A stretch of 64,000 nt of DNA, from the NCBI GenBank assembly GCA_041659685.1, contig JBAZXV010000004.1, positions 6,355-70,354 on the forward strand, in the 5' to 3' direction. The translations under genes and the position numbers were made by a program. This document shows, piece by piece, positions 5,267 through 35,402 of the stretch; position 1 is the stretch's first letter; each line of letters opens with the position of its first letter. The notes beneath the pieces are model-generated. The model had not been told where the DNA came from, did not search any database, and worked only from the letters and a program-made list of their open reading frames with translations. The stretch comes from Parcubacteria group bacterium (lineage in GTDB: Bacteria; Patescibacteriota; Minisyncoccia; Moranbacterales; UBA11712).

Positions 5267-7468
5267 ATGATTGCAGTTAAAAAGGGTCAAAAAATGGTCA
5301 GTAAAAAAGAAAGATCCGCCTCAGGCAGGGAGGGTTGCGTTGATCGGGTAGTGAAGCGCGACGGGCGCGTCGTTAAGTTTGAACAGGAAAAAATCACCAA
5401 AGCTGTGATGAAATCTTTCGCGGAAACGGGCGAGGGCAAAGAAGCGGATGCGAAAAAAGTTTCTTCGAAGGTAGTCCAGCTCCTTAATAAAAATTACAAA
5501 AAAGGAAACGTTCCTGAAATCGAGGAAATTCAGGATCTCGTGGAGCGCGTTCTCATGATCCTGGACTTCGAGGAAACCGCTAAAGCCTATATCCTTTATC
5601 GTGAACAGCATCGGAAAATTCGCGAATCGGAAGAAGCGCTTAAGGAAGCGGTGGATCTCGTCGACAAATATATAAAGGAAATCGATTGGCAGGTGAAAGA
5701 AAATGCCAACATGAGTTATTCCCTTCAGGGCCTTAATAACTACATTTCTTCAATTGTCAGCTCAAAATATTGGCTAAACCGCGTTTATTCAAAAGCCATT
5801 CGCGATGCGCACGACGAGGGAGATTTTCATATTCATGATCTCGACAAAATCGCCGCCTACTGCTGCGGCTGGGATCTTCAGGATCTGCTCCGCCGCGGTT
5901 TTACCGGAGTTCCCGGGAAAATCGCCTGCAAACCGCCTAAACACCTCCGAACAACTATCGGGCAGATGGTTAACTTTTTCTATACTCTCCAGGGAGAAGT
6001 GGCAGGTGCGGAAGCATTTTCTAATTTTGACACTCTTTTGGCTCCGTTTGTAAGATACGACGGACTTTCTTTCAAGGAGGTGAAGCAATGCATGCAGGAA
6101 TTCGTTTTTAATGTCAATGTTCCCACCCGGGTCGGATTCCAAACGCCTTTCACGAATATCACCCTGGACATCGTTCCTCCAAAAAATATGGCGGAAGAAT
6201 CGGTGATTATCGGCGGAGTGCCGCAAAAGGAAAAATACGGGGAATTTCAGGAAGAAATGAATATGATAAACAAAGCTTTCGCCGAAGTAATGGCGGAAGG
6301 CGATGCCAACGGGCGGGTTTTCACTTTTCCGATTCCGACCTATAACATCACCCGGGATTTCAATTGGGACGATGAGCACCTGAAGCCTATTTGGGAGATG
6401 ACTGCCAAATATGGCATTCCCTATTTTGCCAATTTCATCAATTCGGATATGGATCCCGACGACGCGCGTTCGATGTGCTGCCGGCTCAGGATAGACAATC
6501 GCGAACTTCATAAGCGAGGAGGCGGACTTTTTGGCGCCAACCCTTTGACCGGTTCGATCGGCGTTGTCACAATTAACCTGGCCCGCATTGGATATTTGGC
6601 GAAGAAAGAATCCAAGAGCAAAGCGGCCGGCAAGAAAGATTTCTACGCGCGGATTGACAAAATAATGGATCTTGCCAAGGAAAGCCTTGAGACAAAAAGA
6701 AAAATCATCGACAGCTTCATGAAGAAGGGACTTTACCCTTACGCGAGATTTTATCTGGACAGCATCTATAAGCGCCGGGGAAATTACTGGGCTAACCATT
6801 TTTCAACAATCGGAATTATCGGGATGAATGAGGCTCTTAAAAATTTCATGGGAGAAACTACGGCAACTGAAAAAGGGATAAAATTTGCCGAAGAAGTTCT
6901 GATTCATATGCGCGAAAGGCTCGTAAAATATCAGGAAGAAACAGGGAATCTTTATAATCTTGAAGCGACTCCGGGCGAAGGAACTTCTTACCGGCTTGCC
7001 ATAAAAGATCGCAAAAAATATCCCGATATGATATTTGCGAACGGTCAAATCGGAGAAAACGATAAGATCGAACCCTACTACACAAATTCCACCCAGCTTC
7101 CCGTCGGGCACACCGATGATTTCTTCGAGGCGCTGCAGCTCCAGGAACCGCTTCAGACGAAATACACCGGCGGAACGGTTTTGCATGGCTTTATGGGGGA
7201 AAGAATCGAAGACATCGAAACAACAAAAAAACTAGTGAGGACAGTTTCCGAAAAATACGCCCTTCCTTACTTTACTTTATCTCCGACCTTCAGCATCTGC
7301 CCGTCGCACGGGTATCTGGTTGGAGAACATGAATTTTGCCCCAAATGCGTTGTGGAGCAAAAGTGCGAAGTTTACTCCCGAATCGTCGGCTATATCCGTC
7401 CCGTTGAACAATGGAACAAAGGCAAGGCGACGGAATATGGAGACCGAAAAGAATTTGTGGTCGGATAA
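5267..7468 (+). CDS. nrdD: anaerobic ribonucleoside-triphosphate reductase, class III
   Basis: 733 aa; N-terminal ATP-cone; CCGWDL motif; C-terminal Zn ribbon CPSHGY..CPKC; glycyl-radical motif SRIVGYIRPV. Confidence 0.92.
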   Translation: MIAVKKGQKMVSKKERSASGREGCVDRVVKRDGRVVKFEQEKITKAVMKSFAETGEGKEADAKKVSSKVVQLLNKNYKKGNVPEIEEIQDLVERVLMILDFEETAKAYILYREQHRKIRESEEALKEAVDLVDKYIKEIDWQVKENANMSYSLQGLNNYISSIVSSKYWLNRVYSKAIRDAHDEGDFHIHDLDKIAAYCCGWDLQDLLRRGFTGVPGKIACKPPKHLRTTIGQMVNFFYTLQGEVAGAEAFSNFDTLLAPFVRYDGLSFKEVKQCMQEFVFNVNVPTRVGFQTPFTNITLDIVPPKNMAEESVIIGGVPQKEKYGEFQEEMNMINKAFAEVMAEGDANGRVFTFPIPTYNITRDFNWDDEHLKPIWEMTAKYGIPYFANFINSDMDPDDARSMCCRLRIDNRELHKRGGGLFGANPLTGSIGVVTINLARIGYLAKKESKSKAAGKKDFYARIDKIMDLAKESLETKRKIIDSFMKKGLYPYARFYLDSIYKRRGNYWANHFSTIGIIGMNEALKNFMGETTATEKGIKFAEEVLIHMRERLVKYQEETGNLYNLEATPGEGTSYRLAIKDRKKYPDMIFANGQIGENDKIEPYYTNSTQLPVGHTDDFFEALQLQEPLQTKYTGGTVLHGFMGERIEDIETTKKLVRTVSEKYALPYFTLSPTFSICPSHGYLVGEHEFCPKCVVEQKCEVYSRIVGYIRPVEQWNKGKATEYGDRKEFVVG

Positions 7469-22795: not shown

Positions 22796-23944
22796 TCAGG
22801 AAATTACCAGATTCTTCGGGTAATTTGTCAGATTCTTGCTGCCGTTTTTGGTGACTAAAACAATATCTTCAATTCTAATTCCTCCGATCCCCGGATAATA
22901 CAAGCCGGGTTCGACGGTTATTATGTTTCCCGCCTTCAAAATGTCTTCCGAGCGGGGTTTGAGGCTGGGTTTTTCATGGATGTCGAGTCCGACTCCGTGC
23001 CCTAAGCCATGCACAAAGCCGATTTCTCCGGTATCGTACCCTTGCTCTAAAATGACATTCGCCGCAACGTCGTAAATTCCTTCCGCCCGAGATCCAGCGC
23101 GGATTTTTTCCATGGCCGCCTTTTGGGCTTTTAAAACAGCGTTATACATCTTTTGGATCTCCGGGAGCGGTTTTCCTTTGGCATAAGTTCTGGTCATGTC
23201 GGCAAAGTACCCTGATTTTCGGTGACGGGGGAAAATATCGCAAACAATCGGCTGATGCGGAAGAATCGGACCGGTTCCGCTTTCGTGAGGAATGGCGGTT
23301 TGCTTTCCGGCGGAAATGATCATTCCGAGAAGGTCGAACATTCCTTTTTCAATAAGCGCTTTCTCCGCCTCTTGTTTCAAAAATTCGCTGGTGAGTATTT
23401 TATTTTTGAAATAAATTCTCTTTTCACCAATTTTGGACTTTCGGAGGATGCTTTCGATTATTCGAAAAGCCAGTTTGGTATGTGCCAGGCTCTCCCTGAT
23501 GAATCCGATTTCTTCTTCGGTTTTTACGGCTCTTTCGGGAAAAAAGGGAAAAGTGGGAGTGAGTTTTGTCCCATTCTTCCGCAAAAAATCAGCCATATCA
23601 AGCGGAAAGTGGATAGGCACTTCAATATTTTTATTAAGTAAGCCGTATTTTTTGAGGATATAATAAGCGAGTTTATTGCGATCGGAGGTTTTTAGTCTTA
23701 ATTTTTTTGCCTGCGCGGAAAGGGGATTAAGCAGTACGGATTTTATTTTTGTTTTTTTGGGAATAGTGCCAAAATCAACCCGGTCCAGCAGGGCATATTT
23801 CCCGCCCGAGGCGGGTCCGCCTTTGGAGGATTTTCCGACCTCAATATAGAAAAAAGAGCTGGTGATGGGCGTCTTCACCGCATAATGCATATCAGAGTCT
23901 TTTGTTGAAGCGAAAATTAATCTGTTCACGGATTGTATTGACAT
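22796..23944 (-). CDS. M24-family Xaa-Pro aminopeptidase
   Basis: HGLGHGVGLDIHE, GNIITVEPGLYYPGIGGIRIEDIVLVT; the N-terminal 37 aa of the track ORF are excluded. Confidence 0.8.
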   Translation of the reverse strand: MSIQSVNRLIFASTKDSDMHYAVKTPITSSFFYIEVGKSSKGGPASGGKYALLDRVDFGTIPKKTKIKSVLLNPLSAQAKKLRLKTSDRNKLAYYILKKYGLLNKNIEVPIHFPLDMADFLRKNGTKLTPTFPFFPERAVKTEEEIGFIRESLAHTKLAFRIIESILRKSKIGEKRIYFKNKILTSEFLKQEAEKALIEKGMFDLLGMIISAGKQTAIPHESGTGPILPHQPIVCDIFPRHRKSGYFADMTRTYAKGKPLPEIQKMYNAVLKAQKAAMEKIRAGSRAEGIYDVAANVILEQGYDTGEIGFVHGLGHGVGLDIHEKPSLKPRSEDILKAGNIITVEPGLYYPGIGGIRIEDIVLVTKNGSKNLTNYPKNLVIS

Positions 23945-24528
23945 TATAAAGGATATTGATAGAATAAATGCAAATGAACATATTTGCAATCCGTCCCACG
24001 CCGGTTCGCCGCGGGGTAAACAACCAAGGCATGAAGAAGGATACCAAGAAGACAAGCTTTTTGGTCGGTTTTGGTTTATCGAAAATTACCCCAGCATAAA
24101 AGACTTCGCATGAATTTTCTCTAAACCCGGGCCGATCAACGGACCCGGGATTTTGTTCTTTAACGCTATAGTCCTTAATCTTATTAAATTACGGCTTAAG
24201 GCCGCATTTTAGGGGGTATGATTATGGAAAATCAGCAAAAAGCAGTGGTGCTGGACGGAAAATATTTTCCGGAGGAAATGAGGAAAAATTGTCGGATACT
24301 TCTCAATTTTCTGGATCGCGGAGGAGCTCTGGAAAGCTTCTTAATTATGAACCTCGCGATAAATTACCCGAATCTCAGGAAATGTGCCTTTTTTTGCACT
24401 AGTCCCTGCAAACTGGGACAGGAGATGCAATGCCTCGGAAATCTTCAGGCAGAAGGGTGACTAATGGTTAATCTGGAAAATCAAAAACCTGATTGTTTAA
24501 GTCACGAAACAAAAAATGAAGTGAGGAG

Positions 24529-24884: not shown

Positions 24885-24913
24885 TTGACATAAATTTTTT
24901 AAATTGCTAGAAT
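24885..24913 (+). promoter_or_regulatory. near-consensus sigma70 promoter
   Basis: TTGACA-17 nt-TAGAAT (ttgaca taaattttttaaattgc tagaat). Confidence 0.55.
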
Positions 24914-24922
24914 ATTTCAGTA

Positions 24923-25024
24923 ATGAATATTAATCAAACCAAAACATTTTTCTTTAGCTATTATTTTTTCTGGTTTACACGCCAGGTCGGTTTTGGTTTG
25001 AGTAGAATTTTAGCAAAAAGATAA
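24923..25024 (+). CDS. aromatic-rich leader peptide (33 aa: MNINQTKTFFFSYYFFWFTRQVGFGLSRILAKR)
   Basis: Begins ~10 nt after the promoter's predicted start site; 8 Phe, 2 Tyr and 1 Trp clustered as TFFFSYYFFWFT; followed by a GC-rich stem + U7 and then PDT/TyrA genes. Confidence 0.5.
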   Translation: MNINQTKTFFFSYYFFWFTRQVGFGLSRILAKR

Positions 25025-25045
25025 ATTCTCTCAGAAATTATAAGC

Positions 25046-25082
25046 AAACCAAAGGCCGGCCTTCCAAGGCGCGGTTTTTTTG
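25046..25082 (+). terminator. candidate attenuator terminator (GC-rich segment + T7)
   Basis: caaaccaaaggccggccttccaaggcgcggttttttt; exact pairing not resolved by eye. Confidence 0.4.
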
Positions 25083-25447
25083 TTCTTTAAAATGCATGCC
25101 GTACGGCTATCCTAGCTCTCTTTTTGCTGATTACGAGAGTTGAGACAGCCGTATGGCTTGAGATTAATCAAAAAATATCGGAAGGGGGATAAATCACGAT
25201 GCTTGAGGCCATCAGGAGCGAATTGGGAGAGGCGGGATTGGCGAGACTGTCTGGATTGCAATTATTCTGGGTTGATCGCAACTGTGTATTAGGAGGCAAC
25301 ACTAATTTACGGAAGAAAGCTTCCAGTGCTCTTTGGGTGAAGCGGATGAGTGATTCCAGGATGCCCTTTGGGAAGTGCAATGGATGTTGCATTTGTTTAA
25401 ACGGGAATATAAGGTTATTAAGCAATCTATAAGGAGCGCAAAGCAAG

Positions 25448-26199: not shown

Positions 26200-27714
26200 A
26201 TGATAAACGCGATAATCGGAGCCAATGGCGAGATGGGGAGATTTCTCATCAACTTTCTCAAGCCGCTGGGACCCGTGATAGAAATTGACAAACAAAGTAA
26301 AGCCAATGAATGGAAAAAAGCATGGAAAGCCGATGTAATCTGGTTTAGCGTCCCTCGGGATATCGTTGATGATATGGTGAGGGGAAAAAAATTAAGCAGT
26401 AAACAGCTCTTAGTCGACATTTGTTCCATAAAAAGAAATATTGCCGCAGTGCTGAAAAAAACCGGAGCTGCCCATCTATCATTGCATCCTTTGCATGGCC
26501 CGTATATACCAATAAGCGGTCAAAAATGGGCGCTTGTTCCAACGGATAAAAATAGTCAGAAGCATCCTATGACTTGCGACATAATCAAATATCTAGAATC
26601 AAAAGAAATAAAAATCGTGGAAGCCGAATCAGAGAATCAGCATGATTTCATGATGGCGTTAACATTGAGTGTTCCGGAGCTGCTCTCGATAATGATTGAC
26701 GAATTAGTCGAACAATACGTCAAAGATAACAAGGCAAAAAAACCATCTAAAGAAGAATTGCGCAAGTGGGCAATTCCGGCTTTTAACTCGATTCATAATA
26801 CTTACATTCATATCGTGGACAGTACATCGCCTTGGCTGCGGGCCGACTTGCTATGCAAAGCTCATGGAAATCTTCTGGAAAGCGCAAGGAAGACTTTTAA
26901 GAAACTCGGGGATGATTTGCTGGAGAAAAATATCAAAAAACATTTGAAAAAACAGCGAAAATACATTGCTGGCTTACCTCAGCGCGAAAAAGAAAATTGT
27001 CGCTCCTGGCTTGAGCGTTGGTTTGTAGAGTCGAATAAAAAAATGTTTCTTGAGGAAAAAGATTATAGTAAACCGGAGTTGAATATTCAGTGGAGTCTTT
27101 CCAGAGAAGAGATATTCAGCTTGAGGAAAAAGAGTTATACAGTGGGCATTCATGGCATTGCCGGATGTTTTACTCATGAGTCAATAATTAGATTTGCTGA
27201 GGAAAATAAGATCAATCCGGAAATATTTGATTTTAGATTCTTGATTACAGCGGAAAATGTTCTGAAAAATGTCCAGGAAAAAAAGATAGACGTGGGAGTT
27301 TTTGCAATGGCAAACTCTGGTTCGGGTGCATATGTTTCAAGCATGCACGCTATGGGAAGATATGACTTTGACGTTTTAGCGGTTTATGGCATGGAAATAG
27401 TCCAATGTTTGATGGGCGATCCCAGAACTGATTTTTCAAAAATCGAACAGGTTTTTGGGCATCCCCAAGCAGTCAGTCAATGCAAGCGTACCTTTGAAGA
27501 GAAATATCCTCAGTTTAAACTTGTATATGGCAATGACAATGATGATACGGCACTATGCGCGAGAATGGTTAAGGAAGGTAAGTTACCAAGGACAACTGCT
27601 ACACTAGCCTCTCAAGTAGCGGCAAAATTATATAAGTTAAAGATTTTTGCCTATGACATGCATCACGATCCTTATAACACTACAACTTTTTTGCTAATCA
27701 GAAAAAGAAAATGA
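26200..27714 (+). CDS. prephenate dehydrogenase (TyrA) N-domain fused to a C-terminal prephenate-dehydratase-like domain
   Basis: N: IIGANGEMGRFLINFLK (NAD fold), DV-W-SVP, SLHPLHGP. C: TVGIHGIAGCFTHESII, TLASQVAAKLYKLKIF, DPYNTTTFLLI (PDT N-TRF-L motif with R to T). Confidence 0.65.
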   Translation: MINAIIGANGEMGRFLINFLKPLGPVIEIDKQSKANEWKKAWKADVIWFSVPRDIVDDMVRGKKLSSKQLLVDICSIKRNIAAVLKKTGAAHLSLHPLHGPYIPISGQKWALVPTDKNSQKHPMTCDIIKYLESKEIKIVEAESENQHDFMMALTLSVPELLSIMIDELVEQYVKDNKAKKPSKEELRKWAIPAFNSIHNTYIHIVDSTSPWLRADLLCKAHGNLLESARKTFKKLGDDLLEKNIKKHLKKQRKYIAGLPQREKENCRSWLERWFVESNKKMFLEEKDYSKPELNIQWSLSREEIFSLRKKSYTVGIHGIAGCFTHESIIRFAEENKINPEIFDFRFLITAENVLKNVQEKKIDVGVFAMANSGSGAYVSSMHAMGRYDFDVLAVYGMEIVQCLMGDPRTDFSKIEQVFGHPQAVSQCKRTFEEKYPQFKLVYGNDNDDTALCARMVKEGKLPRTTATLASQVAAKLYKLKIFAYDMHHDPYNTTTFLLIRKRK

Positions 27715-29315: not shown

Positions 29316-29516
29316 TTGACTAGTAAGGGAAAAATGTCGGCGGATATGGCTGTGGATAACCAATGCTTGACGAATGGGATATTATCTATTAACATCAATA
29401 CTGTTATGCAAACTGTCTTAGCGAAAAATTCCATCCAGACTCTGCTAGTCCTAGTGCTACTATTCGTCGTGGCGCGTTTTTCGCTGAGCAGAGTGTTTTA
29501 TAAGATCATCAATTAG
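29316..29516 (+). CDS. small membrane hypothetical protein
   Basis: 66 aa with a C-terminal TM; a clean terminator follows 30 nt downstream. Confidence 0.25.
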   Translation: MTSKGKMSADMAVDNQCLTNGILSININTVMQTVLAKNSIQTLLVLVLLFVVARFSLSRVFYKIIN

Positions 29517-29546
29517 AAGATTTATATAAACAAAGATTAGAACTCT

Positions 29547-29577
29547 CCGCCCGGCGCAAAACACGGCGGTTTTTTTA
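29547..29577 (+). terminator. rho-independent terminator
   Basis: ccgcc-cggcgcaaaacac-ggcgg-tttttttat. Confidence 0.6.
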
Positions 29578-29774
29578 TATATCGTCGAAAAAATATCAGG
29601 CCGAAAGGAGGGGAAAATGATAAATTTTTCCAAGACAGGGTGCTTCTGCATCTTATGCCGTCAAGAGATTTGGCGTGCCGCCGGGTGGTATCGATGCAAT
29701 TGTATCGAAGGAAAAAGCTGGAGGATTCCTTTTAGGTGGCTAAGTATGCTTTATTTACCTGGACCTAAACGGGT

Positions 29775-30260
29775 TTGGATGTGATCTTCGAAAAGGAGTT
29801 AGGGGAGACGAGTATGACGGAGATTGGACAACCGCGCTGCAACACAAAGGATACTGTTCCTTGCCAAGTGAAAATTTTGGAAATCTGCCGCAAGTGCGGC
29901 GGCTTCGAACTCAATCCCGGGATCGTCAAATTTTGCCCGCGATGCCTTCCGGCGTTCGGGAAGCAAGCTGAGTTGAGGCTTGAAACTGACGCTAAAACTC
30001 AAGCGGACGAGCTGTTTTGCGACACCTGCCGGTTTCGTTGCTGGAACCGGAATTACTATTTTTATCGGTCGGTAGTTCAGCGGTTTTTATGCTCAGGAGA
30101 TCATGAAGAGAAAATTACAGTAAAGGGGGAGCGGTGCAAGAGAAAAAAAGGAAGCCGTCGCTGCTCGAATTTGATAGCAGCGGGTAAGTGCCCTGTCGGG
30201 AAGCATAAAAATCCAAATGCCAGGTGCAATTCGAGATTTTCCAAACTAACCTCAGCTTAG
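29775..30260 (+). CDS. Cys-rich hypothetical ORF (multiple CxxC pairs)
   Basis: CRKCGG, CPRC, CDTCRFRC; coding status doubtful. Confidence 0.2.
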   Translation: MDVIFEKELGETSMTEIGQPRCNTKDTVPCQVKILEICRKCGGFELNPGIVKFCPRCLPAFGKQAELRLETDAKTQADELFCDTCRFRCWNRNYYFYRSVVQRFLCSGDHEEKITVKGERCKRKKGSRRCSNLIAAGKCPVGKHKNPNARCNSRFSKLTSA

Positions 30261-31287
30261 ACAGGCAGCGAAAAATCGTGCCCAAGTCGAAATTAACGGG
30301 GAGGCAGAAATGGCTACAGAAGTTTTATGTTCAGCCGCTGAAGGCTCGGAAAATTGCAGGGAGCGATGCAAAGAAGGGAAATGTCCTTATGGGTGTCCGG
30401 AGAGTAGCTGTCCTCCGATCAGGCAAAGACTGGGGCATGTTTCCGTGAGGCCGGCTGCGGTCAACGGACAAAGGTTTTCCGCTCGGGCCTAACGTGCGGC
30501 AATAAGCCACGTATTTAAAAGAACCAAAAAGATAAATCGCAGGTCCAAAATTTTCCGGGCATAGCTCATTGTTGCTATGCATCCGGGGGGAGGATCACAG
30601 CGCAACACGCTGTCTCCCTGGGAGTAACCAAACTCCCTTTTTTTGTTGACAAAATATCTTGAGTGTATATCACAAAGGGAGAAAATAAACAAATAGATCC
30701 GCGATATGCCGCAGGAAGGCAAGCTCTTCAATTCAGGAGAGCACAGTGCCAGAATGGGGTCGGGGTTCGAAAGAGCCCTGACCCCATCATCTTAAATCAG
30801 AGTTAAATTTATATGAACAACCAGTATTAACGTCGGTTTTTAGGATTATGAAAATTTATCCAATAACAAAATTATACATTCTGCTATTGCAAAAAAAGCT
30901 GGTTTTTTGCCAAACAAATTGTTTTGCATAGTTTATTTTTAGAACTAACAGAGAAATTTGCCCGGCAAAAAAGTCGGGCATCTTTAATTCAGAAGGGAGA
31001 AGCAATGCCGATTACAGTTAGAATTATCGCCGAACTTATGAGCGGACAGGAAAAAGGGATTGAGCGCCAGACGTGAGAAGTTTGCCGTCAAAAGAGACCG
31101 ATGTATTTCCAGCATTGTCTGGATGATCTGCAGTCGTTTCTGGAGGAGAAGCTTAGCGAATTTCTCCGCGGCGCGCCGGTAAAGGTGGAAATTCAAACGG
31201 ATTCCAATCTACCCGCATAAAAATTTTGCCGGCAGAGCGGGGCTGCAAAGCCAGCCTCACTCAATATCAATTAACTTTGGGAATTTA

Positions 31288-31356
31288 TCTCTCTTTGCGG
31301 AAAACTACGAGATAAGTTCGTCGGATAGATGCTTCTTTTTCTGTTTAGAGGAGCTT
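31288..31356. repeat. copy (c) of the CYTTTGCRGAAAAC element
   Basis: ctctctttgcggaaaactacgagataagttcgtcggatagatgcttctttttctgtttagagg aligns over ~60 nt with copy (a). Confidence 0.4.
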
Positions 31357-31540
31357 CATTCCAAAGAATGATTTCTTATAGAAAAATAATATTGACGAGA
31401 GTGCATTCGGGGATTATGATTTAGTAAGCATGAAACGAAGATCAACGGGAAAAAATTTTGTGAAGATTTGGATTAAGATGCTAGTCAATAGCAACTATAA
31501 TTTCTCGTTGAGTAAAGTATTCTAAATAACAGAAAATAAT

Positions 31541-32119
31541 TTGCCCATAGAATATTTCACCCCGCGAGGAATCAATTCCGGCGGGATTATTTTTGCCCAG
31601 CGAGGCGTCAAAAAAACAAGGAGGCAGCGAACAATGGCGTGTTCAGGTCCTGAAGAAAGCGGCAGTAAGGTGTCCGAGGTAGGAGTAGTTTTATCTCCGA
31701 AAGTATATGGGGAGTGCCACAAGCTTCCCAAAGGGGGAAAATGCAGAAGTGCGGTGAAGCAAACGGCAAGAGGGGTAAAATTTCTGTGTCCCAGCCTTAA
31801 TTGCGGTTATGAATTCTGCCTTTCCAAGCACCCGGGAGCTGTTGGAAAGAGGACCAATGTTCGGAGTATTGGACGGACTATTTTTGGACAAGATTATCAT
31901 AAATATAGTCTTATTTTCCTGACCGGAGCGAAAGAACTGATCGCCGCCGCTCCCAATGAGGAAGTAAAACCTTTGGAACCGAAAAGGACTCTGCGTAATG
32001 TGCACCAAGGTTCAATAGAACCGCCCTGGGGCCGCGCCGAAGTCGCACGGACCGAAGGTTTCCGGCTTATTAACGAAAAAACCGGACCCAACATCATCCA
32101 ACGCCATCCAGAGCGCTGA
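31541..32119 (+). CDS. hypothetical ORF
   Basis: 192-aa ORF followed by a 10-bp hairpin gagggctgga/tccagccctc; no family. Confidence 0.2.
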   Translation: MPIEYFTPRGINSGGIIFAQRGVKKTRRQRTMACSGPEESGSKVSEVGVVLSPKVYGECHKLPKGGKCRSAVKQTARGVKFLCPSLNCGYEFCLSKHPGAVGKRTNVRSIGRTIFGQDYHKYSLIFLTGAKELIAAAPNEEVKPLEPKRTLRNVHQGSIEPPWGRAEVARTEGFRLINEKTGPNIIQRHPER

Positions 32120-32299
32120 CCAAAGAGAGGGCTGGATAATTGCAAAGCGTCCAGCCCTCCCCATCAAAAAATATGCTGTTAAGCTTGTCTCGAGCGGAGA
32201 TTATAATAATCTGAAATTTTATCCTCCCAGAAGGAACGGACGGTTATCCCGTGCGTAGACTTGGGGAGCTTCATATAAAATGATTGAATGTCCGGAGGC

Positions 32300-32327
32300 T
32301 TGACCAATTTATAATAGCGTGTATAAT
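32300..32327 (+). promoter_or_regulatory. sigma70-like promoter
   Basis: TTGACC-16 nt-TATAAT (ttgacc aatttataatagcgtg tataat). Confidence 0.5.
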
Positions 32328-32335
32328 ATATTTCA

Positions 32336-32416
32336 ATGAACAGCAAAACCCGCTTCATAAACATTATCAGCATTATTATTATCCGACCTCAGTTGCCCGG
32401 CGAGTTTTGCGTTTAA
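32336..32416 (+). CDS. Ile-rich leader peptide (26 aa: MNSKTRFINIISIIIIRPQLPGEFCV)
   Basis: ATG ~9 nt after the -10; 7 Ile of 26 aa including a run of four (IIII); a terminator hairpin lies 23 nt after the stop; a LeuA/CimA-family gene lies downstream. Confidence 0.5.
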   Translation: MNSKTRFINIISIIIIRPQLPGEFCV

Positions 32417-32438
32417 GTCAAATTTCTTGAATTCAGAA

Positions 32439-32467
32439 CCGGCTCGGCAACAACGAGTCGGTTTTTT
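32439..32467 (+). terminator. attenuator / rho-independent terminator
   Basis: ccggctcg-gcaacaa-cgagtcgg + tttttt (8-bp stem with one G-U). Confidence 0.6.
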
Positions 32468-32523
32468 GTTCCTTGTCACATAGCACAAAAAAATAATCAT
32501 AAAATCATAGTGAGGAAATATTT

Positions 32524-32850
32524 ATGTCTAGAGGATTTGAGATTGGCGGAGTGGTGTTTTACCGAGGCTGCCAGCAAATTCAGGATTTTTTTCAAGAGTT
32601 GGCCGAAGTTTTCGGGGTGGGATGCTCAAAAAGCTTTGGGGAATGTATGGCGCAGAACGAAGATTTATTGCGCGCATTTCTCGAAAGTTTTGGGTTCAAA
32701 GGGAACCATGAGAGAACCACTTTCTGTGAAAAGTCCGGATGCTCTCTGAATGGCGATTGTCCCGCTACAAATTGGGATAAAGTCAAAGTATGGAAAATTC
32801 CTCCCGAAGCTCGGCTGAACGGCGGGCGTTCCGGGAGCCTCTTGTGCTAA
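32524..32850 (+). CDS. hypothetical protein
   Basis: 108-aa ORF between the attenuator and the synthase gene; no family. Confidence 0.25.
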   Translation: MSRGFEIGGVVFYRGCQQIQDFFQELAEVFGVGCSKSFGECMAQNEDLLRAFLESFGFKGNHERTTFCEKSGCSLNGDCPATNWDKVKVWKIPPEARLNGGRSGSLLC

Positions 32851-33126
32851 GAAAATTGGGGAGACGCCAATATGCGCCTCCCCCCAACCAAAAAATTATT
32901 AATTTCACATAACTAATCCATAAATAATTCAAATGAAAAGCCCGAGTCGTTCAAAAAATATTATTGGCATTATTCAACCGGCCGAGATTGTCGGGTTAGT
33001 TTTGTAATATATAAATTAAGATCCGCTTACAAAACCGACCTGATAATGGGTCGGTTTTTGCTTTAAAAAAGCAGCGGTTCTTTGAAAAACATGAAAGCGG
33101 AAAAAATCAAAAAAAAGGAGTCGGAA

Positions 33127-34674
33127 ATGTTCAAAAGAGAAAGAGTGGAAATAATGGACACGACGCTTCGGGACGGGGAGCAAATATCGCACGGCAGTTT
33201 TTCGCCGGAATGGAAGCCCCGGATCGTAAAAGCGCTTTTTGAAGCTGGTGTGGATCGGGTCGAGGTCTGTTCGGCGCGAGGCCATTCAAAAAAAGAGCAA
33301 AAAATGCTTGCCGAAGTCATGAAATGGGCAGCCGATAAGTGTCTCGATCGTCATGTCGAAGTCCTGACTTTCCTGGACGGGACAAAATCGGTTGATTGGG
33401 TCCGGCAAGCCGGCGGAAAGACAATAAACCTTCTTGCCAAAGGTTCTCAGCTCCACGCTCGGGAGCAACTGGGACATAATGTCAAAAGGCATCTCGAAAA
33501 AATTACCGAATCCGCGGGTTATGCCGCAGCTTGCGGAATTGAAGTCAATCTTTATCTTGAAGACTGGTCTCAGGGGATGATGGATTCTCCCGGTTTTATT
33601 GAGCAGCTATTGAACGGGATAGCAGATTTGCCTATCCGGCGCATAATGCTTTGCGACACGATGGGGGTTTTGAATCCGTGGAAGACGGAAAACATGGTTC
33701 TTAGGATGATGAAATGGCAGCTGCATTTCCACTATGATTTTCATGGGCATAATGACTATGGTTTGGCGGTTGCGAACAGTCTGGCGGCCGTGAAAGCGGG
33801 CGCGAAGGGAATACATGCGACTGTCAATGGACTCGGAGAACGGACAGGAAACGCTCCACTCGACGAAATCACTCTTGGAATCCGGGATCAACTTTCTGAC
33901 TATCGTACAGACATCAGAATTACTCATCTTCGCGGCCTCGGCCGCAATGTCGCCTTGATGTCGGGGCGGCGGATGCCTCCCAACAAACCCATGACCGGGA
34001 GCGAATGTTTCTCAAATACCGCCGGAGTTCACGCGGATGGAAATCGAAAAAAAAGCCTTTATGCGCATCGTTGGCTGAGGCCGGAAGATTTTGGATCCAG
34101 AATCCGTCATTCGATGGGAAAACTTTCCGGAAAATCCAATATCCTTTTTAATCTTGAAAGGCTTGAGTGGAAACTTTCCGATGAGCAAGTTAATGCCGTC
34201 CTTCTTCGTACGGTTCGACTTTCCGATGAGGGAAAAGCTATAACGCTTGGAGATCTTCCCTTTGTCGTGGCGTCGGTTCTTAATCAGCCGGAATTAATTG
34301 TATTTGAGGTTGTTTCAGCTGAAACTTGCTCGCGTACTGCCCGAAAAGCAACGACCAAAGCGAAAATCAAATATCGCGGCGAAGAGCATGAACTGGAAGC
34401 GGATGGTGACGGGGGATTTGACGCGTTTATGAACGCCCTTGCGCTGTGGGCGAAAAAATCTCAATCCCTAAAAATTCCCGATCTTCTGGACTACTCCGTC
34501 AATATTCCGCCCGGAGGAAAATCTTCGGCTCTGGTTCACGTGACAATTGAGTGGGAGGTTTCCGGAAAAATAGGAAAATTTGCTACTTCCGGAGTGCATT
34601 GTGATCAGGTGCTGGCGGCTATTGAGGCGGCATCGCTGGCGGTGAATTTGTGCAACTGCGGCAGAAAAAGGTGA
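33127..34674 (+). CDS. 2-isopropylmalate / (R)-citramalate synthase family protein (LeuA/CimA-like, with C-terminal regulatory domain)
   Basis: RBS aaggag 6 nt upstream; IMDTTLRDGEQ, HFHYDFHGHNDYGLAVANSLAAVKAGA, NGLGERTGNAPL; ~515 aa. Confidence 0.8.
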   Translation: MFKRERVEIMDTTLRDGEQISHGSFSPEWKPRIVKALFEAGVDRVEVCSARGHSKKEQKMLAEVMKWAADKCLDRHVEVLTFLDGTKSVDWVRQAGGKTINLLAKGSQLHAREQLGHNVKRHLEKITESAGYAAACGIEVNLYLEDWSQGMMDSPGFIEQLLNGIADLPIRRIMLCDTMGVLNPWKTENMVLRMMKWQLHFHYDFHGHNDYGLAVANSLAAVKAGAKGIHATVNGLGERTGNAPLDEITLGIRDQLSDYRTDIRITHLRGLGRNVALMSGRRMPPNKPMTGSECFSNTAGVHADGNRKKSLYAHRWLRPEDFGSRIRHSMGKLSGKSNILFNLERLEWKLSDEQVNAVLLRTVRLSDEGKAITLGDLPFVVASVLNQPELIVFEVVSAETCSRTARKATTKAKIKYRGEEHELEADGDGGFDAFMNALALWAKKSQSLKIPDLLDYSVNIPPGGKSSALVHVTIEWEVSGKIGKFATSGVHCDQVLAAIEAASLAVNLCNCGRKR

Positions 34675-34691
34675 AAAATTCAGCTAATCAA

Positions 34692-34725
34692 AGGGGAGGC
34701 GCCCGCGCGGCATCTTCCCTTTTTC
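34692..34725 (+). terminator. rho-independent terminator
   Basis: aggggaggcgcccgcgcggcatcttccct + ttttcatttt. Confidence 0.55.
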
Positions 34726-34775
34726 ATTTTAGTGTAGTAGATTTTTAAAAGACTATTTAAGGGAGGAATGGGCCT

Positions 34776-35066: not shown

Positions 35067-35246
35067 ATGGGACTAAAAAGCGAAATTAACGAACAAGTTG
35101 GTAAATTGTCCAGCAAACTCAGTGAAATTCATGCGATTGCATCTCAACTTGACGGAATTGCGTCGAAAATGAATAGTATTGAAACCGAACTTACGGAAAC
35201 TATCTCAAATATCAAAACAAAAGCCGATCATATTAAGGAAGATTAA
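35067..35246 (+). CDS. small coiled-coil hypothetical protein (59 aa, below the ORF-track cutoff)
   Basis: MGLKSEINEQVGKLSSKLSEIHAIASQLDGIASKMNSIETELTETISNIKTKADHIKED; heptad-like pattern. A perfect palindrome TTGAGATAgGATCtTATCTCAA follows at 35279-35300. Confidence 0.35.
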   Translation: MGLKSEINEQVGKLSSKLSEIHAIASQLDGIASKMNSIETELTETISNIKTKADHIKED

Positions 35247-35331: not shown

Positions 35332-35402
35332 CGGGCTGTAGTATAGTGGTAGTACGCGAGGCTGGGGGTCTTGTAGCCCGGGTTCGATTCCCGGCAGCCC
35401 GA
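35332..35402 (+). tRNA. tRNA-Pro (anticodon GGG)
   Basis: Cloverleaf folded by hand: acceptor CGGGCTG/CAGCCCG, D-stem GTAT/GTAC with AGTGGTA loop, anticodon stem CGAGG/TCTTG with loop CU-GGG-GG, T-arm CCGGG-TTCGATT-CCCGG, discriminator A; no encoded CCA. Confidence 0.8.

Follow-up and report, generated by a model that had tools for sequence, protein, structure and literature searches.

In the classical leader-peptide attenuators of E. coli and Salmonella (ilvL of ilvGMEDA, trpL, hisL, leuL, pheL and thrL), a promoter-proximal open reading frame (ORF) carries codons for the end product of the pathway, and the position of the ribosome chooses between a terminator and an antiterminator. Elements that resemble these are found at positions 32300-32467 and 32933-33059 of a 64-kb stretch of a Parcubacteria-group genome (Patescibacteria, candidate phyla radiation or CPR; the whole stretch is called the window, and all coordinates are window positions), upstream of a citramalate-synthase-type gene at 33127-34674. 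With a probability of about 0.8, they are two paralogous copies, in series before the synthase gene, of a leader-peptide transcription attenuator that senses isoleucine by way of the ribosome.

A proline follows the regulatory run in ilvL, hisL and pheL, and the same is true of the leaders described here. Whereas ilvL is a mixed Ile/Val/Leu leader ahead of ilv genes, the leader in the window is purely an Ile leader and its putative target is a citramalate synthase gene. The leaders of this locus also differ from those of enterobacteria in having no predicted 1:2 protector hairpin, in being predicted to default to read-through when untranslated, in lacking Shine-Dalgarno sequences and in being probably leaderless.

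Attenuation of branched-chain amino acid biosynthesis by leader peptides extends beyond the enterobacteria: examples are the upstream ORF and attenuator of ilvBNC in Corynebacterium (PMC11857589, PMC10272879), the Leu-rich attenuator peptide of S. aureus (PMC5794164) and Rli60 of Listeria (PMC5864092). The present leaders resemble these in the kind of biosynthesis that would be attenuated, but the described systems govern ilv-leu operons through mixed or Leu-rich peptides, whereas phylum, target and scaffold are all different here. In mycobacteria, leaderless poly-Cys short ORFs attenuate downstream cysteine genes. The mycobacterial ORFs resemble those described here, which are probably leaderless too, in that a run of codons for one amino acid gates the genes downstream; the amino acid and the lineage are different, and the locus in the window has a canonical terminator/antiterminator pair. 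The Ile T-boxes of Firmicutes (ileS, ilv-leu) have the same signal, the charging of tRNA-Ile, and the same terminator/antiterminator output, but a T-box binds the tRNA directly without any ORF.

Neither in the window nor in 12 related loci did any leader (among others Leu_leader, His_leader, Thr_leader, Trp_leader and Phe_leader), T-box or riboswitch family of Rfam 15 reach its gathering score, and a permissive scan of 32250-33130 gave no such family either. All matches were at chance level, such as a weak one to Phe_leader with 17 bits, where the threshold is 55. Neither a cimA leader peptide nor attenuation in CPR bacteria was described in any paper found by full-text literature searches, although an older report that calls such genes leuA is possible. 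What appears to be new here is an Ile leader-peptide attenuator before a cimA-like gene, in CPR bacteria, without a matching Rfam family.

The two leader elements and their predicted switching

The features of the locus, all on the + strand, are as follows; W1 denotes copy 1 (leader 1, 32300-32467) and W2 denotes copy 2 (leader 2, 32933-33059).

32300-32305 and 32322-32327, +: promoter of leader 1, -35 TTGACC and -10 TATAAT with a 16-nucleotide (nt) spacer, 11/12 matches to consensus
32324-32329, +: alternative -10 of the same promoter, TAATAT, with an 18-nt spacer
32336-32416, +: leader ORF 1, 26 codons and a stop, MNSKTRFINIISIIIIRPQLPGEFCV, 7 Ile including IIII
32392-32417 and 32426-32451, +: antiterminator 1, 5' arm (last leader codons and stop) and 3' arm (terminator 5' arm and loop) in the minimum-free-energy fold
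32437-32446 and 32454-32463, +: intrinsic terminator 1, stem AACCGGCUCG / CGAGUCGGUU, U6 at 32462-32467, -16.6 kcal/mol
32524-32850, +: ORF108, a Cys-rich hypothetical protein of 108 amino acids (aa) with Shine-Dalgarno GAGGA, the first ORF past attenuator 1
32933-33007, +: leader ORF 2, 24 codons and a stop, MKSPSRSKNIIGIIQPAEIVGLVL, 5 Ile with the run at 32960-32965 and 32969-32974
32987-33007 and 33027-33047, +: antiterminator 2, 5' arm (ending at the leader stop) and 3' arm in the minimum-free-energy fold
33033-33041 and 33048-33056, +: intrinsic terminator 2, stem AACCGACCU/GGGUCGGUU, U5 at 33055-33059, -13.6 kcal/mol
33127-34674, +: citramalate-synthase-type gene with HMGL-like, HCS_D2 and LeuA_dimer domains (Pfam)
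34690-34727, +: hairpin and U-run past the synthase stop, about -20 kcal/mol

The promoter of leader 1 is the top promoter-like site within 29-36 kb. Leader 1 has its Ile codons at 32357-32359, 32363-32368 and 32372-32383, and no other short ATG ORF on either strand of the window has six or more Ile in eight residues; in first-order Markov simulations of the window, 0.03 such ORFs are expected per 64 kb, and a chance origin is unlikely. Terminator 1 has a 7-nt loop, and the 8-bp core of its stem, CCGGCUCG, begins 23 nt past the leader stop. The promoter, the 26-codon ORF and the terminator with its U6 had all been described in the original prediction and are present as described, except that the terminator stem extends beyond the predicted 8 bp to 10 bp with one G.U pair. 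The whole 146-nt leader 1 region folds much better than shuffled sequences (z -4.8, 0/200 as stable). A short ORF just 5' of the leader 1 promoter (32140-32214) ends with AEIIII and a stop; no terminator follows it, and it is probably a chance product of AT-rich sequence.

None of the leader ORFs examined has a Shine-Dalgarno sequence, whereas the genes downstream carry GGAG or GAGGA. The -10 hexamer of leader 1 ends 6-8 nt ahead of the ATG, depending on the hexamer chosen; the corresponding spacing is 8 nt in the related locus L088 and 9 nt in an aromatic leader elsewhere in the window, and the 5' untranslated regions of two further loci, L001 and L090, would be about 7 nt. Because of the short spacing and the missing Shine-Dalgarno sequence, the leader 1 mRNA is considered leaderless or nearly so, and initiation is probably of that kind.

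According to the original prediction, the element of leader 1 lies upstream of the synthase gene. It does, but the synthase is not the next gene: ORF108 and then leader 2 intervene, and the attenuator that adjoins the synthase is the second copy at 32933-33059, which had been overlooked. ORF108 has no Pfam or NCBIfam match, and a word-indexed search of 5.8 billion proteins found only ORF108 itself. The one match of an exhaustive HMMER search was marginal (E 1e-5) and involved a repeat module in a surface-type protein of 2956 aa, and there is no similarity to the small ORFs behind other leaders. Because its coding score is weak (0.073, compared to 0.364 +/- 0.105 for real genes), the status of ORF108 as a real gene is uncertain. 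The hairpin past it (32858-32883) has no U-run on the + strand.

The regions of leader 1 and leader 2 align with 75% column identity and are therefore regarded as paralogs. No consensus promoter was found ahead of leader 2 or elsewhere between ORF108 and leader 2, so that transcription would most simply reach the synthase gene past two serial Ile checkpoints; in this simplest reading, the two copies would act in series. A weak promoter-like site (9/12) at 32473-32500, right after terminator 1, may permit partly independent expression of the downstream part. With a hairpin and U-run past its stop codon, the synthase gene appears to be the last of the unit.

For the modelling of co-transcriptional folding, the RNA was folded up to the terminator loop (before the terminator 3' arm) with the ribosome footprint masked. 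Terminators were folded one by one, since MAFFT offsets their 3' arms by one column between copies. The original prediction had proposed a search for alternative antiterminator folds, and such folds do form: the minimum-free-energy fold of each leader in the window is a long imperfect helix between the 3' end and stop codon of the leader and a segment that includes the terminator 5' arm. Antiterminator 1 has a free energy of -27.2 kcal/mol, compared to -15.1 +/- 2.9 for dinucleotide shuffles, and antiterminator 2 has -20.3 compared to -10.9 +/- 2.4; none of 300 shuffles was as stable for W1, W2 or L088. The z-scores are -3.9 to -4.2 for the window copies and -2.0 to -5.0 for all six leaders. 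Both antiterminators of the window exceed their terminators in stability. The consensus fold of W1, L088, L089 and W2 has 30 pairs, six of which show compensatory double changes.

Without a ribosome, or when the A site of a ribosome is on the Ile cluster, the masked-footprint folds sequester the terminator 5' arm (7 of 10 nt in W1 and 8 of 9 nt in W2). With a ribosome at the stop codon, antiterminator pairing is abolished in W1, W2, L088, L089 and L001, leaving the arm free or in scattered pairs elsewhere; in L090, part of the pairing remains. A trp-type 1:2 protector or pause hairpin was not predicted for any leader, and the folds without a ribosome retain the antiterminator. Such a hairpin is a feature of the trp paradigm that is not required of leader-peptide attenuators. 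Since it is absent and the antiterminator wins, the default of untranslated RNA is taken to be read-through.

Deduced from the sequence, the translation of the leaders, their responsiveness to isoleucine, the serial action of the copies and the substrate of the enzyme would fit together as follows. Transcription would start essentially at the leader ATG, and a ribosome would translate the short ORF. When charged tRNA-Ile is scarce, the ribosome would stall in the Ile run, and the 3' part of the ORF would be free to pair downstream as the antiterminator, holding the terminator 5' arm while RNA polymerase reads on. When isoleucine is ample, the ribosome would arrive at the stop codon, inside the antiterminator 5' arm, and would melt the antiterminator; the terminator hairpin and U-run would then form, and transcription would end. 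In the absence of translation, the antiterminator is predicted to win. This would be a two-hairpin design with the ribosome as an anti-antiterminator, rather than the four-segment trp design.

Conservation and codon exchange in related loci

Relatives of the synthase (P0002-P0009) form a small clade with 51-72% identity. An Ile leader and terminator precede the orthologous synthase gene in each of the four related Patescibacteria loci whose upstream DNA is complete:

L088: leader MSQKTFFIIISIIISRLKLSSKFCI, 134 nt to the gene
L089: leader MNKRFSSIIIISIISRLQLSREFCV, 139 nt to the gene
L001: leader MLSTRKNIIISIIIISQPQGGSFLMR, 158 nt to the gene
L090: leader MSSTLRNIIIGIIIISQPMGGRLSLR, 88 nt to the gene

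A fifth locus, L091, with a 72% identical synthase, starts inside the element and keeps a W2-type terminator just before the synthase gene. The leader ORF is thus conserved, which the original prediction had named as a point to check, and its proposal of an isoleucine attenuator agrees both with this conservation and with the formation of an antiterminator. Leader 1 shares the EFCV/KFCI ending and the same helices with the leaders of L088 and L089, of which its sequence marks it as the ortholog; ORF108 and copy 2 are therefore best regarded as an elaboration specific to the lineage of the window. A covariance model of the scaffold from which the Ile run was left out also recovers a leader that had no part in building it, that of L082 (38 bits, E 9e-7). 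Relatives also keep the order of ROK kinase, small ORFs and synthase, as in the gene tables of P0002, P0006 and P0007, which are nearest to the synthase apart from L091, and in the relatives' loci the synthase gene stands alone, except in L001, which has leuA and proB.

Two high-GC homologs, P0011 and P0013 (49% and 48% identity), have no leader, and the leader-bearing CPR clade is therefore considered to end at about 51% identity. A metagenome scan with an alignment of the CPR clade served as an outgroup survey; the matches listed were all at most 46% identical. Upstream DNA longer than 250 nt was available for 83 cimA-like loci, and at 11 of these an Ile-rich short ORF and terminator were found: three of the CPR clade (L001, L088 and L089) and eight in other, higher-GC organisms, with leaders such as ...GVIIIIRDPTGW... 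and ...NIIGGIIIIIIGASPP.... L090, obtained after this survey, is a further CPR example.

Six loci (L016, L020, L024, L029, L032 and L059) have a separate family of higher-GC Ile leaders, ...IIII(R/P)(D/E)PTG..., upstream of cimA-like genes. A CCCACGG segment, common to these leaders, pairs with a terminator 5' arm AGCCGUGGG, and the synthases are 66-68% identical to one protein cluster, P0089.

The strongest single argument for amino-acid-specific attenuators, and for Ile rather than Leu as the signal of the CimA-like gene, is the exchange of codons in L001, which has three leaders in a row, for Ile, Val and Leu. The Ile leader precedes a CimA-like gene (NF042433, 548 bits); the Leu leader, MKYNLPQSNLLLGLLLLSQPQGGRFTSV (LLLGLLLL), precedes a true leuA (NF002086, 545 bits, cutoff 532), followed by proB; and the Val leader, MKSIACQILSVVVVVTSHKTRWFGI (VVVVV), precedes a 90-aa ORF. 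The Ile and Leu leaders have a common segment coding for SQPQGG and a near-identical terminator, differ in the codon run alone, and both fit the same fold model.

Codon-swapped paralogs are located at 5639-5806 and 6208-6388 of L001 and at 2714-2866 of L090. The Val leader of L090 (VVLNVVV), like that of L001, precedes a conserved protein of 90-97 aa; the identity between the two proteins is 32% (E 5e-13), and neither has a Pfam match or a homolog in this window.

A three-hairpin element of about 100 nt, the last hairpin being followed by a U-run, is conserved at 30545-30648 of the window, 368-472 of L088 and 2270-2376 of L089, with compensatory changes in the first hairpin and no Rfam match. 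It lies directly 5' of the Ile-leader promoter in L088 and L089, and 1.7 kb upstream in the window. It may be a small RNA or a 3' element.

Identity of the synthase and alternative explanations

The synthase gene is annotated by NCBI from 33091 (527 aa), and has a Shine-Dalgarno-bearing start at 33127 (515 aa). The NCBI record, a 100% identical protein of a Parcubacteria group bacterium, mentions in its label only an 'alpha-isopropylmalate synthase regulatory domain'; the 515-aa form is not on record. Its best NCBIfam match is the Leptospira (R)-citramalate synthase CimA, NF042433, with 470.8 bits, compared to 254 bits for the best LeuA model (cutoff 517) and 143 for the Geobacter-type citramalate synthase; all LeuA models are far under cutoff. 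The best match in the PDB is the Leptospira enzyme LiCMS (3BLE), with 288 bits compared to 132-136 for isopropylmalate synthase (IPMS) and homocitrate synthase (HCS), and the catalytic domains are about 45% identical. Like LiCMS, the predicted protein has the three-domain architecture and conserved catalytic and pocket residues, including the equivalent of Y144. The pyruvate pocket of LiCMS reportedly includes L81, L104 and Y144 (Ma et al. 2008). The residues at these positions are L, L and Y (YLEDWS) in the window protein and in those of L001 and L088, whereas the LeuA paralog of L001 has L, I and S (FSAEDAS). LiCMS is specific for pyruvate and inhibited by isoleucine, according to work cited in PMC7826400. 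A CimA-like rather than LeuA function of the synthase is thus supported, as the original prediction had suggested from the Ile codons: the model score, the best PDB match and the pocket tyrosine all favour a Leptospira-type CimA.

Downstream of the synthase gene, a small coiled-coil ORF (MGLKSEINEQ..., 35067-35246) is conserved in L088, L089 and L091, and a tRNA-Pro(GGG) gene at 35332-35402 has the same position in L088.

Several observations weigh against an Ile attenuator of a citramalate synthase gene. The score of the synthase is under the CimA equivalog cutoff of 950 bits, because of which the protein is filed as CimA-like and not as an equivalog. No leuBCD or ilv genes are present within the 64-kb window, as the original prediction had remarked of ilv genes, and a complete route from pyruvate to isoleucine is therefore hypothetical. 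The non-CPR homologs L092 and L093, which are closer than the other leader-bearing loci, have no leader. The structures are all minimum-free-energy predictions with an assumed ribosome footprint, the covariation comes from only four sequences of a region that is also peptide-coding, and the terminator of L089 is weak (-9.4 kcal/mol). The clustered Ile codons of leader 2 number only four. Lacking a Shine-Dalgarno sequence, the leaders depend for their translation on leaderless or Shine-Dalgarno-independent initiation, especially leader 2 with no recognisable promoter. Finally, the ORF directly after attenuator 1, ORF108, is an orphan without a link to isoleucine.

It is possible, though clearly less probable than serial control by both copies, that only the copy at 32933-33059 regulates the synthase, with 32300-32467 being either a separate unit in control of ORF108 or a relic of the insertion of ORF108 and a duplicated leader, and with a weak internal promoter feeding leader 2. 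In L088 and L089 one W1-type leader stands directly before the synthase gene, and the arrangement in the window is therefore derived; there is also the 9/12 promoter-like site just past terminator 1, and ORF108 has a Shine-Dalgarno sequence of its own. However, all four elements of W1 (promoter, Ile run, antiterminator and terminator) are intact, the interval from ORF108 to leader 2 is without a consensus promoter, and the lack of a + strand U-run in the hairpin after ORF108 makes read-through from upstream the simplest source of leader 2 transcripts. A different doubt concerns the output, since stalling in the Ile run might instead act through Rho-dependent polarity, mRNA decay or control of downstream translation. 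This is improbable: although the outputs are distinguished by predicted structures only and a 1:2 protector hairpin of the trp type is missing from the leaders, each copy has a canonical GC-rich hairpin and U-run in a position to compete with the antiterminator, and the Shine-Dalgarno sequences of the downstream genes are well outside the leader structures.

The two remaining explanations are much less credible than these. A hydrophobic membrane peptide or toxin with its own terminator, unrelated to control of the synthase, would account for the hydrophobicity of the Ile-rich core, and a Leu/Val-rich short ORF of unclear role is present at 29406-29516 as well; but the promoter-proximal site upstream of a cimA-like gene is kept across loci whose synthases are 51-72% identical, the peptide varies outside the Ile run while its stop is always within the antiterminator, and L001 has the same RNA scaffold with Leu codons before leuA. 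The least likely of all is that the synthase is a LeuA and the Ile-rich ORF a coincidence. The NCBI name mentions only the isopropylmalate synthase regulatory domain and LeuA models do score significantly, but no LeuA model gives more than 254 bits or comes near its cutoff, compared to 471 bits for the CimA model; among relatives of solved structure LiCMS is the best match, and the synthase has tyrosine at the LiCMS Y144 position where the LeuA paralog has serine; and L001 has a separate, bona fide leuA under a Leu leader.

Other elements of the window and biological meaning

Another putative leader-peptide attenuator in the window (24887-25082) is of the aromatic type. It has a promoter, TTGACA-17-TAGAAT, an ORF at 24923-25024 (MNINQTKTFFFSYYFFWFTRQVGFGLSRILAKR) with the run FFFSYYFFWF, and a terminator at about 25054-25076 with a U-run, and is located upstream of a small ORF (25199-25432), a 223-aa ORF and a prephenate dehydratase/dehydrogenase fusion (26200-27714). 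Its antiterminator logic is the same, but the pairing remains with a ribosome at the stop codon. The covariance model of the Ile scaffold also matches 23940-24160 weakly (20 bits, E 0.038), where a promoter-like TTGACA precedes a short ORF ending in ...KKDTKKTSFLVGFGLSKITPA and a stop. The 3' part of this ORF resembles the aromatic leader (VGFGLS) without a clear codon run; a hairpin and U-run at about 24125-24160 and a small ORF (24226-24460) follow.

A conserved short ORF of alternating Leu and Val is found as MQTVLAKNSIQTLLVLVLLFVVARFSLSRVFYKIIN at 29367-29580 of the window (ORF 29406-29516) and as MMETSLAKIALVQMLLVLVLVLFSMSFSLSRAFYKILN at 1640-1850 of L089. A promoter of its own precedes it, and a terminator follows it ahead of small Cys-rich ORFs. 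The scaffold model matches this region weakly (22 bits, E 0.012), and the ribosome-masking folds are inconsistent; both a Leu/Val leader and a small membrane peptide are conceivable. The 2.5 kb or so that follow (29600-32120) have no family-assignable genes. They contain small Cys-rich ORFs (e.g. 29617-29784, 29815-30260, 30310-30492 and 31541-32119), whose coding scores are mostly poor or atypical, and the motif GKCP.GKH..P.ARC is common to this region and an ORF of L088.

The proposed mechanism is a textbook one, with variations in the use of two hairpins, the probably leaderless initiation and the serial duplication, and the finding is useful rather than surprising. The codon content of a leader provides an independent, regulation-based means of discriminating citramalate synthases from 2-isopropylmalate synthases, which are routinely confused in annotation, and recurrence of the Ile-leader/cimA pairing in several lineages would justify an Rfam entry. 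A broader proposal, decidedly speculative and somewhat less probable than regulation by copy 2 alone, is that a single duplicating, codon-swappable scaffold is the main amino acid sensor of these Patescibacteria (Ile, Leu, Val and aromatic), with tandem copies steepening the cimA response, and that it gates ORF108 and the 90-97-aa proteins. If this were so, ORF108 and the proteins behind the Val leaders would be unrecognised players in branched-chain metabolism or host exchange, and both transcription-translation coupling and regulated synthesis of isoleucine and leucine would have been retained in this lineage.

The Patescibacteria are usually described as being without amino acid biosynthesis. 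The locus speaks for the retention of regulated genes for branched-chain and aromatic amino acids in at least some Parcubacteria/Patescibacteria, and it suggests that ribosome-coupled attenuation, which requires coupling of transcription and translation, may operate in CPR bacteria.

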